Position numbers: made by a program
In this document: positions 16,601 to 21,549 of the stretch, one piece after another
Numbering within the stretch: the first letter of the stretch is position 1
Layout: the number at the start of each line of letters is the position of its first letter
Assembly: GCA_963695095.1 (NCBI GenBank)
Contig: CAVOFT010000001.1
Coordinates: forward strand, 1,216,001 to 1,280,000
Reading direction: 5' to 3'
Length of the DNA: 64,000 nucleotides
Source: an uncultured bacterium
GTDB lineage: Bacteria; Krumholzibacteriota; Krumholzibacteriia; JACNKJ01

Positions 16601-19600
16601 CTCGGCCTGCTCTGGCCGCAGTTCCTGGCTCTGGCGGGGATGGGACTCGGTGTGCTCTGGCTGGCCGCGCGGCGCTTCCAGCGCTTGACCGGCTAGCGTG
16701 TCTGCCGCGCCTGCGCGCGGCGGCGCGCCCTCCAGCCCTCGATGGCCATGGGCACGAGCGAAAGCGCGATGATGGCGAGCACGGCGATCGAGAAGTTCTC
16801 CTTCACCACCTGCAGGCCGCCGAAGTAGTAGCCGAGCAGGGTGAAGAGCAGCACCCAGAAGCAGCCGCCGCCCACGCTGAAGGCGAGGAAGCGCAGGTAG
16901 CGCATGCGGCCAATGCCGGCCACGAAGGGCGCGAAGGTGCGCACGATGGGCACGAAGCGGGCGAGCACGAGGGTCTTGCCGCCATGGCGTTCGTAGAAGG
17001 CATGCGTGCGGTCCAGGTACTCCTGCTTGAAGAAGCGGCCGCCGCCCCGGAACACGCGCGGGCCCAGGTGGCGGCCGATCGTGTAGTTCAGGTTGTCGCC
17101 GATGACCGCAGCGGCAATGAGCAGGGGAATCAGGACCCGGATCTCCAGCGCTCCCGCGCCCGCGAGGGCGCCCGCGGCAAAGAGCAGGGAGTCGCCGGGC
17201 AGGAAGGGCGTGACGACGAGGCCCGTCTCCATGAAGACGATGCCGAAGAGGATGCCGTAGACCCAGCCGCCGTAGCTCTGCACGAGCTCGAGCAGGTGCT
17301 TGTCCACGTGGAGAATGAAGGAGAAGAGATCGGTCAGCCAGTCCATAGGCGGGTCAATATACAGAAGGCGTCGGTCGCGGCCAAGGGCCCGCAGGCCGGA
17401 ATCGCCTCCCGTGCCCCGCGTTCGCCGAGTCAGGGCTTGGCGGCGAGCTCGCGATCGTGCATGCTGGGTCGCTGCGGGCCCCGCCGCGCACTCCCCACCG
17501 ACCCCGCTCAGGAGATCGACCCATGGCCGAGAAGTTCATCTTTCACATGTACGGCGTCAGCATGGCCTATGGGCCCAAGCAGGTGCTGAAGGAGATCAAC
17601 CTCAGCTTCTTCCCGGGCGCGAAGATCGGCATCGTCGGCGAGAACGGCTCGGGCAAGAGCACCGTGCTGCGCATCATGGCGGGCCTGGAGCCGAACTTCC
17701 AGGGCCACGCCGAGCTCACGCCCGGCTTTCGCGCCGGCATGGTGGCCCAGGAGCCCGAGCTCGACGACGCGCTCACCGTGCGCGCGACCATCGAGTCCGC
17801 CTTCGGGGCGATCAAGGCGCTGATGGCCGAGTACGACGCCGTTGCCGCCAGCATGGGCGAGGATCTCGACGAGGCCGCGATGGCCAAGGCCATGGACCGC
17901 ATGAGTGCCCTGCAAGACCGCATCGAGGCCGCTGACGGCTGGAACCTGGATCAGAAGCTGGATGTCGCCAGCGACGCCCTCTGCCTGCCCGAGGACGAGC
18001 GGCTGGTGGGCACCCTCTCGGGCGGCGAACGGCGGCGCGTGGCCCTCTGCAAGATCTTGCTCGAGCAGCCTGACTTGCTGCTGCTCGACGAGCCCACCAA
18101 TCACCTCGACGCCGAGACCGTGAACTGGCTCGAGGAGCAGCTGCGCGTCTATCCCGGCACGGTGATCGTGGTCACGCACGACCGCTACTTCCTCGACAAC
18201 GTCACCGGCTGGATCCTCGAACTGGAGGGCGGCCGCGGCATCCCCTGGCAGGGCAATTACAGCTCCTGGCTGGAGCAGAAGCTGGCCAAGCTGGCCGAAG
18301 GCGAGCGGGGGGACTCCGCGCGCGGCCGCGCCCTGCGGCGGGAGCTGGACTGGATCCGCATGAGCCGCGGCGACCGCCGGGCGCTGGCCCAGGCGCGCCT
18401 GCGCGAGTACGAGCAGCTCGTCGCCCGCGAGCGGTCCGAGCAGCGGGGCGAGGCCGAGGCGGCCATCCGCATCGCGCCGGGGCCGGAGCTGGGCGCGCAG
18501 GTGGTGGAGTTCAAGGACGTGGCCTTCGGCTACGCGGGGCGCACACTCTTCGAGCAGCTCAGCTTCAGCGTGCCGCGCGGGGCGGTGATCGGCCTGGTCG
18601 GTCCCAACGGCGCGGGCAAGACGAGCCTGTTCAAGCTGATCGCCGGCGGGCTGAAGCCGCAGGCGGGCAGCGTGAGCGTGGGCGCCTCGGTGAAACTGGT
18701 CCACGGCGACCAGGAGCGCAGCGGTCTCGACGCGAACCGCACGCTCATCGAGGACGTGGGGGGCGGCGAGGAGGAGATCGCGATCGGCAGCGAGAAGATC
18801 CCGATTCGCAAGTACCTGGCCCAGTTCGGCTTCAAGGGGGCCTCGCAGCAGAAGCGGACGGGCGAGTTCTCCGGCGGCGAGCGCAACCGCTGCCACCTGG
18901 CCAAGCTGCTCAAGGCGGGCGGGAACCTGATCCTGCTCGACGAGCCGACCAACGACCTCGATGTGAACACTCTACGCCTGCTCGAGGAGGCCATCCTCGA
19001 GTTCTCCGGCTGCGTGCTGGCGATCAGCCACGATCGCTTCTTCCTCGATCGCATCTGCACGCACACGCTCGTCTTCGAGGGCGAGGGCAAGGTGCGCTTC
19101 TACGAGGGCAACTTCTCGGCCTACGAGGAGTGGCGGCAGCGCGAACTGGGCGACCGGCTCTTCGCGAATCGCCGCAACCGCTATCGGACGCTGGTGAAGG
19201 GCTAGAAGACGGCGATGGCGCTGCCGGTCCCTCAGCGATAGAGCGCCTTCACGGAGCCTAGATGCGCTTGCCGAACGGGTGTGGCGGGATTGAGGCAGAG
19301 GCGGTCGGCCAGATTGAAGAGCCCGTCCAAGATCTCGACGCGCGCGATGTAGTCGCCGGCGTCCAGTTGGAGCGGGCCGCTCCCGGCGGCCCAGACGAGG
19401 GGATCGGGTCAGCCCAGACCGGCGCCGTAGTAGCTGATCTCGCGGCTCTGCGCCGCGCCGCCGGCCGCGGGGCGGAGGCTGAGTTCGAGCACGTTGAGCA
19501 TGCCGAACTGGCTCTTGAAGCTGGCCGAGACCTCGTAGCTGCCCGGCTCGGGCAGCGCGATGAGGATCTCGATCCACTCGCCGAGCTGATCGAAGCCCGC

Positions 19601-21549
19601 GACGGCGTAGCCGCCCCCGGCGTTGTTGCACTCCGCGTAGGGATTGATGTCCGCCCCGCCGAGGTCCAGGAAGTCGTAGAGCGGCGGTCCCCACTCGAAG
19701 TAAAGCGGCAGGACCTCATCGGCCGCCGCGCCTGCGGCGCAGCATAGCAGCGCCGACACCAGCAGTACGTGGCCGAGCGCCCCGACCCGGCTCCATCCGC
19801 TCGGCAGCATTCCAGTTCGCAGTAACATTTCCCACCTTCCCCCTCGACCGCGCCTTGATGCAGCCTAGCTGCGGCCCGGGGTGCGTACCCCCGAGCCGAC
19901 TGCTTCGCAGCGACGGATCTCTCCTGCGCCATGCTCTCCCTGCTGACACCGAGCGGCGGCGTTGGGAGCTACTTCAGCAGGAGGGCCTTCTGTGTGCGCA
20001 CGGTCCCCTCCGCTTCCAGCCGGATGACGTAGAGTCCGCTGGTTAAGGGCTGCCCTTGCGCATCCCTCGCCTCCCAGTCCAGGCGCCGCTCGCCCGCGGG
20101 CAGGCGCGCGTCCAGGACCTCGGCGACCCGCCGCCCAGCAGCGTCGTATGCCGTCACGCGGACGCGCTGCTCCTGCGCCAGGCTGAAGCGGATCTCCGCT
20201 CTTGGGTTGAAGGGATTCGGGTGAATACTCAGGTCGCCGCTCCTGGCCGGCGGGGCATCGACGCCGGTCATCAGGTTGCCGCGGCCCAGCCAAATCTCAC
20301 CGGTCGGCTCGGGATCGCCCAGCTCGAAGATCAGGGCGACGGCGCCCTCAAGGCCCAGGGCGAGGTCGTTGTGCCTGCAGATCCTCCCACCGAGAAGATC
20401 CGAGCGATCCTCCCACGCCCCACCCGGCGGTTTGACCTTGTAGTAGCTGGCATAGCTCGTCTGCGCGGCGTAGTCGAACTGCTGGAACCAGAAAGCGTGG
20501 GCGGCGCCATCCGCATCCACGGCCAGCGCCGGCCAGCGCGGCCAGTCGTCGCCGAGCCCGTTCACGGTGAGCTCCTCCGGCTCCGTCCACTGGCCCTCAC
20601 CGAGTTCCCGGCAATAGTAGAGGTGGTTGCAGAGGCAGAGGGGCTGCGGCTTCATGCCGATGAGATGGTGACCACTGGGGCCAATGGCCGTGTCGAAGTA
20701 ACCGCCGAAGTAGCCGCCCTCGGGCCAGACGGAATAGGGGATGCCATAGAGGTCGAAGTAGCCGATGCACTCCTCGACGGGATTCGCCAGGTACAGGCGG
20801 GGGAAGCACACGTCCAGCCAGCAAGCCATCTGGGCCTGGGGGTAGAGGCGCATGGCGTCCTCACCCTCCGTGCAGAACTGCCAGCCGCCGGAGAAGTCTC
20901 CACCCCAGCCTTCATAGAGGAGGGCGCAGAGATCGTCCATCTCCACCGCGAGCGCGTTCTCCGAGCCCTGCCAACCCGGCTGCCAGCTTGCCACCGCCAA
21001 GCCTCGAACGGGCCGATCCCCGGGATCATCGCGGATCTCGACAAGCTCGCCCCATTCGCCGCCGGCCAGCTCGCGCGTGAGGACCCTGTCGCCCTCCGCC
21101 CAGACCAGGCTGAAGCCCCAAGTGGTCCAGCAGACGCCCGGATCGATACCTGGCCCGTGGAAGATGGGAGCTTGCAGCGTGCCAGCGACCAGGCGACGGG
21201 TCCAGATTCCCACGCCCTCCTCCTCCCAGGCGGCCAGGATGTCGCCTGAGGAGCTCATGGTCACGGCGCAGTTCGAGTAGTCTCCCGGAACGGGGCTGAG
21301 CACGGCGAAATCGAGGGTCTGGGCGGTCGCGGTCGCAGCCAAGGCTGTCAGGCAGAGCACAGTGGTCAGCAGGCGCATCGGCACTACCCCCCTCACGTTC
21401 GTCGCCGTTCGGTGCACGCTCCAGCCCCATTATATCTGCGAATGCGCCCAGAGTCACGTCCCCTAGCGGCCCCGGCGGGCACACACGAAAACAGCCCGCC
21501 TCCAATTCCTTGGAAACGGGCTGCTTGCTAGGTGGCGGGGGCAGGATTC

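Follow-up and report, generated by a model that had tools for sequence, protein, structure and literature searches.

Bacterial selenoproteins that pair selenocysteine (Sec) with cysteine are known from thioredoxin-fold families with CxxU or UxxC motifs and from Prx-like, DsbA-like and AhpD-like proteins. Relays of cysteine pairs that serve envelope clients are likewise described. TlpA keeps copper chaperones reduced, and in Neisseria the Trx-like domain of PilB recycles MsrA/B.

We analysed a gene (g01080) on the minus strand of a 64,000-nt stretch of an uncultured bacterium assigned to the phylum Krumholzibacteriota (hereafter the window; positions count along it unless marked C1). Like the known bacterial redox selenoproteins, the family of this gene combines a UGA codon that has Cys homologues with an in-frame bSECIS directly downstream. 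It differs from them in having a beta-sandwich instead of a thioredoxin fold, and in that its members appear to be exported, carry a putative surface-sorting signal and have a dedicated partner predicted to lie in the outer membrane. The gene defines an undescribed selenoprotein family: no description was found in the literature, with the family table of BSepDB (S2) standing outside the comparison.

The in-frame TGA and the hairpin behind it

As conventionally called, the ORF (19828..19409, minus strand) encodes 139 aa and is closed by the TGA at 19411-19409. When TGA is translated as U, the frame stays open up to a second TGA (19234-19232) and the product reaches 198 aa, with U140 in the context Y-Y-G-A-G-L-G-U. 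A Shine-Dalgarno-like AAGGTGG lies immediately 5′ of the ATG. A promoter and terminator scan of positions 19000-20200 found none, and the sole Rfam match at gathering thresholds in the whole window was a tRNA.

Table 1. Positions of the gene and its elements in the window
Feature	Position	Strand	Remarks
Selenoprotein CDS (predicted)	19235..19828	-	198 codons, Sec at 140; frame kept in 56 copies; dN/dS<1 past the TGA
Probable Sec codon (U140), in-frame TGA	19409..19411	-	49 TGA and 7 Cys among 56 copies
Putative SECIS hairpin, GGGCCGC-CGGGA-GCGGCCC	19374..19392	-	8th pair U19393-G19373; over codons W-A-A-G-S-G-P
Terminal stop TGA	19232..19234	-	From TGA=U translation; no hairpin behind it
Cys67 codon TGC, beta3-beta4 loop, proposed partner of Sec140	19628..19630	-	Loop-or-local Cys pattern
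Signal-peptide-like segment	19721..19828	-	Basic residue, hydrophobic run and A-x-A, by eye; homologue starts alike
Beta-sandwich, residues 42-181, CBM6/CBM35-like	19286..19705	-	AF2 and Foldseek
C-terminal tag HLGSVKALYR	19235..19264	-	Degenerate form of [ST]W[GS]x[IV]KxLY; 50/56 copies have the tag

The column of the Sec codon is the only invariant one when the 56 copies of the family gathered across the phylum are aligned (Table 1). In the 49 copies with TGA, frame and similarity persist for 58 codons beyond it. Among the 12 close pairs that can be evaluated, dN/dS past the TGA is 0.09-0.55, and upstream it is likewise. A profile census of 208 genomes of the phylum gave 71 matches in 54 genomes; 60 of these carry one in-frame TGA, one carries two, one has a TGA and a TAA, and nine have no in-frame stop. 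The presence of TGA in 62 of 71 matches is far above chance. The earlier note had reported the same pattern from a six-frame search; its pattern holds, but its counts (38 matches in 30 genomes) differ from those given here. The Cys paralogue that it placed at C1:2605717-2606280 (g02277) was recovered, at C1:2605708/2605717-2606280.

All six homologues in the word-indexed database are 133-139 aa long, which agrees with the earlier statement that such entries are cut short at the TGA. Among the 150 best representative clusters, 109 stop exactly at the Sec site. Since gene callers truncate the family everywhere, an exported protein is misannotated and selenoproteomes are undercounted, in a family that is widespread in sediment-type uncultured bacteria. 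Searches of genome contigs with the single family proteins P0001, P0009 and P0026 gave no match, and a search with the L033 protein returned one record, from the same set of 208 genomes. Clusters with the label Poribacteria among the ESM Atlas look-alikes (scores 0.91-0.92) may serve as a lead to members outside the phylum.

Downstream of the UGA, the hairpin begins after 16 nt and has the loop CGGGA. The constraints of the bSECIS model, taken from excerpts of PMC13188914, are a loop of 3-9 nt, a stem of 4-16 bp, a G at loop position 1 or 2, a spacing of 16-37 nt and an MFE <= -7.5 kcal/mol. With 8 bp, a spacing of 23 nt and -15.3 kcal/mol, our hairpin fits the model as excerpted. So do 36 of the 49 Sec copies, two of the seven Cys copies and 222 of 3583 control positions (6.2%); the remaining 13 Sec copies fail these strict thresholds. 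In 40 of the 49 Sec copies and in none of the 7 Cys copies, the homologous site can form at least 5 of the 6 pairs.

Comparison across copies supports the earlier proposal of a compensatory hairpin. Paired cells amount to 78.6% as against 62.8% in shuffles (0/500 as high) and 35-55% in slid controls, and the covariation score is 0.50 as against 0.217 in shuffles (again 0/500). RNAalifold independently recovers 6 of the 7 pairs. One pair joins position 1 of the second Ala/Thr codon to position 3 of the Ser codon, which is synonymous, and it is GC in 29 copies, AU in 13, CG in 2, UA in 2 and unpaired in 2. Four copies, all of one genus (g5), have a shifted hairpin. Folded as a single sequence, the 81-nt stretch of the window gives a z of +0.62, with 140 of 200 shuffles equally good, so that support for the hairpin is purely comparative. 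The peptide motif A-A-G-S-G is the hairpin itself in translation, and the Cys forms lack both. Because of this overlap, conservation of the hairpin could partly act at the protein level; conversely, the motif offers a clean example of RNA structure constraining protein sequence.

The machinery that the note had listed (selA, selB, selD and tRNA-Sec) was found in full, each component above its cut-off. The selD gene carries an in-frame TGA of its own, and selA exceeds its cut-off in 199 of the 208 genomes. A SelB-type SECIS hairpin at this distance would recruit Sec-tRNA(Sec), and UGA140 would be read as Sec.

A different view would be that the TGA is a true stop with a 139-aa product, that the gene is a pseudogene, or that TGA is generally read through or reassigned. 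It would agree with the behaviour of gene callers, with the length of all six database homologues and with the unexceptional folding of the window's own hairpin. It is hard to reconcile with a frame, similarity and dN/dS<1 that run on past the TGA, with the seven copies that have Cys in its place and with the covariation of the SECIS. Reassignment of the code is rejected, as TGA is the ordinary terminal stop in 26 of the 56 copies. In addition, selA, selB and the partner gene are free of internal TGA. These readings are strongly disfavoured and, in our judgement, extremely improbable. Judged from sequence comparison, the TGA almost certainly encodes selenocysteine. Both earlier claims thus stand: continuation of g01080 into a 198-aa product is supported by the open frame, the similarity and the dN/dS downstream, and Sec decoding by the invariant U/C column, the covarying hairpin and the complete machinery.

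Fold, proposed partner cysteine and C-terminal tag

The AF2 model of the protein has a pLDDT of 90.9, and Foldseek retrieves 3zm8 (E 1.5e-6), 2w1w (TMt 0.80) and 2cdp. By model and fold search, the mature protein is shown as a beta-sandwich of CBM6/CBM35 fold, as the note had proposed; it would be a single domain, exported. The likeness to CBM6/CBM35 (Foldseek prob 1.0) extends to an E-A-E-x-[YF] first strand and a G-[DE]-W motif. In contrast to these modules, the family protein stands alone with no glycoside hydrolase attached, has Sec/Cys as its sole invariant residue, and carries a sorting tag and a link to a thioredoxin-barrel gene. The absence of a family model was also upheld: neither Pfam, CBM families included, nor NCBIfam matches the protein at E<=10, and CBM families have no match at E<=1 to three relatives. 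Apart from Sec/Cys, no catalytic residue is conserved in the 56-copy alignment.

A cysteine that could pair with Sec is present in 52 of the 56 copies: 30 have the loop Cys, 22 a local Cys (CxxU, CxU or UxC), four neither and none both. Among the Sec copies, 20 carry the local motif, a nearby resolving Cys as in known bacterial redox selenoproteins. In 27, unlike in those proteins, the partner lies about 73 residues from Sec, in another loop. On a tree from which the trait columns were left out, the loop/local trait needs at least 6 state changes. We propose that Sec140, in the beta8-beta9 loop, pairs with Cys67 of the beta3-beta4 loop, and that relatives lacking that loop use the local Cys. 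The site would be redox-active, with Sec and Cys joining reversibly in a selenylsulfide. A Sec residue in an exported beta-sandwich that is not a thioredoxin would widen the range of sites for selenium chemistry.

The WGxxKxLY tag claimed for the C-terminus was confirmed for the family, but the copy in the window is degenerate, with L in place of W. The tag ends 32 ORFs of this genome, and its motif occurs 44 times over six frames. Four of the 56 copies end instead in a FlgD_ig / Por_Secre_tail domain, the sorting domain of T9SS, as type-A cargo of that system does, and PorU is above cut-off in this genome. Pfam finds no such domain in the protein of the window, which, like 49 other copies and unlike type-A cargo, bears the tag of about 10 residues that belongs to no known family. 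This suggests that a C-terminal signal, either the tag ([ST]W[GS]xIKxLY) or the T9SS domain of the four relatives, moves the protein from the periplasm to the cell surface. The tag, common to these 32 ORFs of the genome, may mark a new sorting route.

A partner gene with a TlpA-like domain and a predicted barrel

The family gene is associated with a second gene. Across the 208 genomes, 44 have both, 10 the family gene alone, two the partner alone and 152 neither, a table that overstates the link, since related genomes are not independent. By comparison of coordinates, the two genes adjoin in 39 of the 44 genomes with both. In 30 of these 39 cases their order is convergent and the genes are therefore not co-transcribed. 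The partner-less genomes (10 of the 54 with the family) are 75-96% complete. In this genus it is the Cys paralogue that adjoins the partner; the Sec copy of the window, which is not adjacent to the partner gene, is a dispersed duplicate that retains Sec, Cys67 and the hairpin.

In the model of the partner, residues 33-160 adopt a thioredoxin fold, and a barrel with about 20 long strands follows. A PDB profile matches the N-terminal domain to TlpA, ResA and DsbE (CcmG) (3gl3, 3erw, 3c71 and 2b1k, E 3e-11 to 3e-7), with PilB N-domain chains also among the matches. In Pfam, AhpC-TSA scores 26.9 (cut-off 26) and Redoxin 25.7, under its cut-off of 26.6. The domain carries an invariant W-x-x-x-C-P-x-C, and the CPxC and a second CxxC are each invariant in 28 of 28 sequences. 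Unlike TlpA, ResA and CcmG, it continues into a predicted beta-barrel of about 470 residues, which ends in F in at least 90% of the 28 sequences. Foldseek likens the barrel to AlgE, MOMP and OprD/Occ; AlgE reaches E 6e-11 but a TMt of just 0.56, and a sequence-family search of the barrel gave no match. The second CxxC sits on the barrel's long third loop. Among the entries listed by the literature search we found no description of a TlpA-like/barrel fusion.

We propose that the partner unites a periplasmic TlpA/ResA-like domain bearing CPxC with a beta-barrel of 18 to 20 strands in the outer membrane. The TlpA domain may pass electrons to the Sec/Cys protein, perhaps by way of the loop CxxC. 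The arrangement recalls DsbD/ScsB and PilB, in which a cascade of Cys pairs supplies an envelope client with reducing power and a TlpA-like domain is dedicated to one catalytic partner. Those relays, however, either span the inner membrane or consist of soluble fusion proteins, whereas here an outer-membrane barrel and a Sec-bearing client would be involved.

Two other sets of neighbours were considered as partners. The 482-aa upstream gene (19969-21417), a T9SS-type cargo, is not conserved beside the orthologue in the sister genome and was rejected as a functional partner. Synteny with MatE, ArsR, GluRS, KARI and TilS does not extend beyond related genomes, and these genes were not counted as part of the module.

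Readings of the function

The most likely function is that of a selenol/thiol redox module of the envelope or surface. The full model, an exported Sec/Cys redox beta-sandwich served by the TlpA-barrel partner and sorted to the surface, seems to us rather probable. Its tight association with a gene that fuses a thioredoxin domain to a barrel, with two CxxC motifs invariant, suggests a redox system of the envelope that has not been described. In a bolder version, the two genes would together provide a redox path through the outer membrane, leading from the CPxC domain by way of the loop CxxC to the surface-displayed Sec protein, which would reduce an external substrate such as sulfur, metal, peroxide or disulfide. 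In the model long loops alternate with short turns, and on this basis the third loop may face outward or fold into the lumen, akin to a porin constriction loop. We regard this version as tentative and rather unlikely; if true, neither a surface-sorted selenoprotein in bacteria nor a relay of cysteines through an outer-membrane barrel would have a precedent.

Two alternatives assign the Sec/Cys pair another role. It could be a carrier that, in its reduced state, holds a soft ion or atom, for instance Cu(I), Hg(II), or an S or Se species, entering by the barrel, with the TlpA domain keeping it reduced. CxxU, CxU and UxC do resemble metal-binding CxxC motifs, the partner barrel is of channel type, and the lack of further conserved catalytic residues would suit a carrier. 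On the other hand, a conserved His, Met or Asp ligand is missing, and no metal-binding family in Pfam or NCBIfam is matched. At six loci of one family of the phylum, genes for an ArsR-family regulator and for MatE occur close to the pair, but only in related genomes and amid housekeeping genes. We consider a carrier unlikely. It is less probable still that the protein is a stand-alone surface glycan-binding CBM, its Sec-Cys a structural cross-link that merely stabilises a loop and its partner a sugar channel linked by coincidence. The CBM6/CBM35 fold with its typical E-A-E-x-Y start would favour this, as would CBM_6 and CBM_35 clusters among the ESM Atlas look-alikes (0.82-0.84) and the sugar channels AlgE and chitoporin as best barrel matches. 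Nevertheless, the sole invariant residue is Sec/Cys, Pfam recognizes no CBM, and a sugar channel would have no need of two invariant CxxC motifs. Sec is costly and is known almost solely from redox-active sites.

With regard to the redox module, it is worth adding that the genome encodes a DsbD_TM protein, a possible source of electrons.

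Reading frame and Sec/Cys site of the family

An earlier note had claimed that the gene does not end at its first TGA but reads through it as a 198-residue selenoprotein, and the frame is indeed open over this length (coordinates of this and other features are collected in the table below). The genome (two contigs, 70% G+C, 93.5% complete) also carries selA (429.8 bits) and selB (362 bits summed), in addition to tRNA-Sec and selD. As selD contains one in-frame TGA of its own, SelD too is a selenoprotein in this genome. As selA was found above the cut-off in 199 of 208 genomes, selenocysteine (Sec) use is general in the group.

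A six-frame search (E<=1e-3) of these 208 genomes, treated as the phylum, matched 54 of them. We used 47 family loci, 30 from this search and 17 fetched afterwards, and a family HMM built from 29 tblastn copies recovered 56 copies at i-E<=1e-30. An in-frame TGA is present at the motif in 49 copies (38 in the exact hmmalign column, 11 displaced from it one or two positions by local indels) and Cys occupies the Sec site in seven; no copy has a third residue there, and when all 56 are aligned with MAFFT this is the sole invariant column. Of 14 close pairs, 12 were evaluable for Nei-Gojobori dN/dS, which ranged from 0.09 to 0.55 downstream of the TGA and from 0.11 to 0.53 upstream. The open frame, the TGA or Cys at one site and the downstream dN/dS below 1 bear out the claimed read-through. 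Moreover, 26 of the 56 copies use TGA as their normal terminal stop, and in 23 of these it comes right behind a conserved C-terminal tag. This rules out reassignment of the codon and indicates that it is read by context. That the TGA does not encode Sec seems to us highly improbable, and we are nearly certain that the gene is real and its product a real selenoprotein. The mechanism by which Sec is incorporated is the usual one.

A profile census of the same genomes (E<=1e-12) yielded 71 matches in 54 genomes: 60 with exactly one TGA, one with two, one with a TGA plus a TAA, and nine with none, one of the nine being a fragment that ends short of the Sec site. Among the phylum families f1 to f9, the gene family occurs in 7/11, 0/7, 0/10, 1/1, 32/43, 3/8, 1/91, 4/23 and 5/13 genomes, respectively. 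In the copy of locus L041 (G080:C20:41832-42320, another genome of the set), a second TGA falls exactly on the Trp codon of the tag (S-S-S-U-G-L-I-K-A-I-Y), which may reflect either a TGG-to-TGA change that truncates the tag or an error in sequencing. The copy at G035:C179:2576-3049, from a further genome, has a TAA plus a TGA within the match and may be a pseudogene.

Features of the selenoprotein gene, its surroundings and related genes of the same genome (C1, the contig holding the window)
Feature	Position	Strand	Remarks
Selenoprotein ORF to first TGA	window, ATG 19828 to TGA 19411-19409	-	139 aa
Same frame with TGA as U	window, open until TGA 19234-19232	-	198 residues; U140 in Y-Y-G-A-G-L-G-U
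Hairpin	window 19392-19374	-	GGGCCGC-CGGGA-GCGGCCC, 16 nt after UGA
ORF with two ATP-binding cassettes	window 17457-19205	+	582 aa; convergent on selenoprotein gene, stops 27 nt apart; by eye, looks like an ABC-F protein
Gene upstream of selenoprotein	window 19969-21417	-	482 aa; C-terminal FlgD_ig / Por_Secre_tail domain
tRNA, Met (aragorn, anticodon CAT)	window 21533-21606	-	upstream of the two-gene stretch
selD	C1:69142-70107	-	342 bits
tRNA-Sec (aragorn)	C1:1473424-1473521		RF01852, 71.9 bits
PorU-type T9SS sortase gene and PorV-like gene beside it	C1:2159466-2163721		
Partner gene	C1:2603697-2605667		656 aa; single copy
Tagged ORF, example	C1:313243-314673		
Tagged ORF, example	C1:3307145-3308530		
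Tagged ORF, example	C1:1200046-1200786		

A hairpin after the UGA

The gene's own 81-nt stretch is no better folded than shuffles (z +0.62), and because the DNA is 70% G+C the hairpin of this copy alone is weak evidence. Among the 49 Sec copies (alignment A1), the share of cells in which its seven pairs form is 78.6%, versus 62.8% in shuffles, and the covariation score is 0.50 versus 0.217; none of 500 shuffles reached either value. This agrees with the compensatory changes reported in the earlier note. Controls with slid partners paired in 35–55% of cells, and RNAalifold independently predicts six of the seven pairs. One pair links the first base of the second Ala/Thr codon to the synonymous third base of a Ser codon (GC 29, AU 13, CG 2, UA 2, unpaired 2); judged from the aligned sequences, protein constraint cannot explain these changes.

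At the homologous site, at least five of six pairs are present in 40 of the 49 Sec copies and in none of the seven Cys copies. Translated, the hairpin is the motif A-A-G-S-G(P), with codons GCC GCC GGG AGC GGC (window 19374-19393; homologous site in family loci L022-L069), and the A-G-S-G peptide motif is likewise gone in the Cys forms. Since the Cys-form paralogues lack both hairpin and motif, the RNA structure dictates the protein sequence at this place. Four Sec copies, all from one genus, have a shifted, longer hairpin.

We also applied the published constraints of the bacterial SECIS model (bSECIS; PMC13188914). Of the 49 Sec copies, 36 comply; so do two of the seven Cys copies and, among 3583 in-frame positions taken as controls, 222. 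The hairpin of our gene is among the Sec copies that comply (8 bp, 23-nt spacing, -15.3 kcal/mol).

Fold, relatives and C-terminal tag

Neither Pfam nor NCBIfam gave a match to the protein, even at E<=10, as the earlier note had stated. The AlphaFold2 model (56-sequence alignment, pLDDT 90.9) has eleven strands and a short C-terminal helix spanning the tag, and the top Foldseek ranks are CBM35 and CBM6 modules (3zm8 at E 1.5e-6, 2cdp, and 2w1w with TMt 0.80). A profile run against 1.84 billion database representatives returned 1098 at E<=1e-3, 285 of them at E<=1e-10. Among the best 150 of the 1098, 109 end exactly at the Sec site (final G-x-G); the rest comprise 15 Cys forms of full length (G-x-G-x-G-C), 19 long multidomain proteins and seven others. 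In three short relatives (P0031, P0088 and P0105) the Sec-bearing half of the sandwich is missing, whereas its first half and the tag are retained. A word-indexed search found six proteins, each of 133–139 aa, and the sole name attached to any was 'hypothetical protein'.

A word search of the literature found no selenoprotein or selenocysteine work on Krumholzibacteriota. Judged by listings, with titles and abstracts for the former, papers on Latescibacter and selenocysteine contained none on the family, and those on selenocysteine and carbohydrate-binding modules none that was relevant. In the portions seen of deep-Sep, a 2026 review and BSepDB, the terms carbohydrate, CBM and secreted were absent, or irrelevant where present; the species table of BSepDB holds 14 'Latescibacterota' genomes. 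The family is without a model, and we found no description of it in the literature covered, which for BSepDB means text passages and the species table.

The tag, [ST]-W-[GS]-x-[IV]-K-x-L-Y plus 0–4 residues, ends 50 of the 56 copies; in our gene it is degenerate (H-L-G-S-V-K-A-L-Y-R). As T-x-x-x-x-[ST]-W-[GS]-x-[IV]-K-x-L-Y right before the stop codon, it closes 32 ORFs of the genome outside the window; these account for 32 of the 44 places where the motif occurs in all six frames. The 20 longest tagged ORFs matched Beta_helix (five, four also Chlam_PMP), PD40 (one), an InhA MAM domain (one) or nothing (13); the window's own tagged protein matched no NCBIfam model. The tag looks like an undescribed sorting signal. 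Four family copies carry a FlgD_ig / Por_Secre_tail domain in its place, so that tag and T9SS domain can stand in for each other. This suggests that the protein lies at the surface or outside the cell. The sortase PorU scored above the cut-off (438 bits) and its PorV-like neighbour below it (112 bits). The 482-aa gene, given its C-terminal domain, encodes cargo of T9SS type, and the same domain was matched by some 40 other ORFs in the genome.

Partner gene, proposed partner cysteine and possible function

A conserved neighbour gene was found in 27 of 48 clustered loci. The N-terminus of its product is signal-like, and there is a domain of TlpA/ResA/DsbE type (AhpC-TSA 26.9 bits, cut-off 26; PDB profile matches from 3e-11); the remaining ~470 residues, a predicted outer-membrane barrel, had no sequence match in Pfam, NCBIfam or PDB. 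In the model (pLDDT 79.5), a thioredoxin fold at 33–160 is followed by about 20 long strands up to a C-terminal Phe, and Foldseek retrieved AlgE, MOMP, chitoporin and OprD/Occ barrels (from E 6e-11, TMt <=0.56). A CPxC and a second C-x-x-C are both invariant among 28 partner sequences; the latter is predicted to lie in the barrel's long third loop, which joins strands five and six and spans 48 residues modelled at low confidence. The genome also encodes a DsbD_TM protein.

The partner gene is present in 46 of 208 genomes. By coordinate comparison, 44 genomes have both genes, ten the family alone, two the partner alone and 152 neither. Given that related genomes lack independence, these counts show an association and are no statistical test. 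In 39 of the 44 the two are adjacent (within ~170 nt, or parted only by a second family copy), 30 pairs being convergent and nine co-directional; in the other five they are far apart on one contig (two) or on different contigs (three). In our genome the partner gene immediately precedes, on the upstream side, the Cys paralogue (C1:2605708-2606280) rather than the window's Sec copy. Beside the partner gene at L125:10703-12577 and the homologous places in L129, L130, L131, L134 and L135, an ArsR-family regulator gene occurs in six of six loci and a MatE transporter gene in four; since all six come from one phylum family, the arrangement may simply have been inherited.

Copies with a long beta3-beta4 loop (30; 27 Sec and three Cys forms) have a Cys in this loop (C-S-G-G or C-x-x-A-S; Cys67 in our protein) and none near Sec. 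Twenty-two copies lacking the long loop have a local Cys, as CxxU, CxU, UxC or CxC. None of the 56 copies has both and four have neither, and on a tree made without the trait columns the three states need at least six changes. We read the loop or local Cys as forming a Sec-Cys pair with Sec, that is, a putative selenylsulfide.

The most likely function, in our view, is that the protein would be exported to the cell surface and act there through a Sec/Cys redox site that the TlpA-barrel partner would serve; taken as a whole chain, this is reasonably probable. A role as a metal or chalcogen carrier appears unlikely, and still less likely is a glycan binder in which Sec and Cys would form only a structural cross-link.

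Tandem duplication of family genes is frequent. The two copies are both Sec forms in loci L031, L038 and L030, while in L042, L048, L058, L067 and L069 a Sec form has a Cys form beside it.
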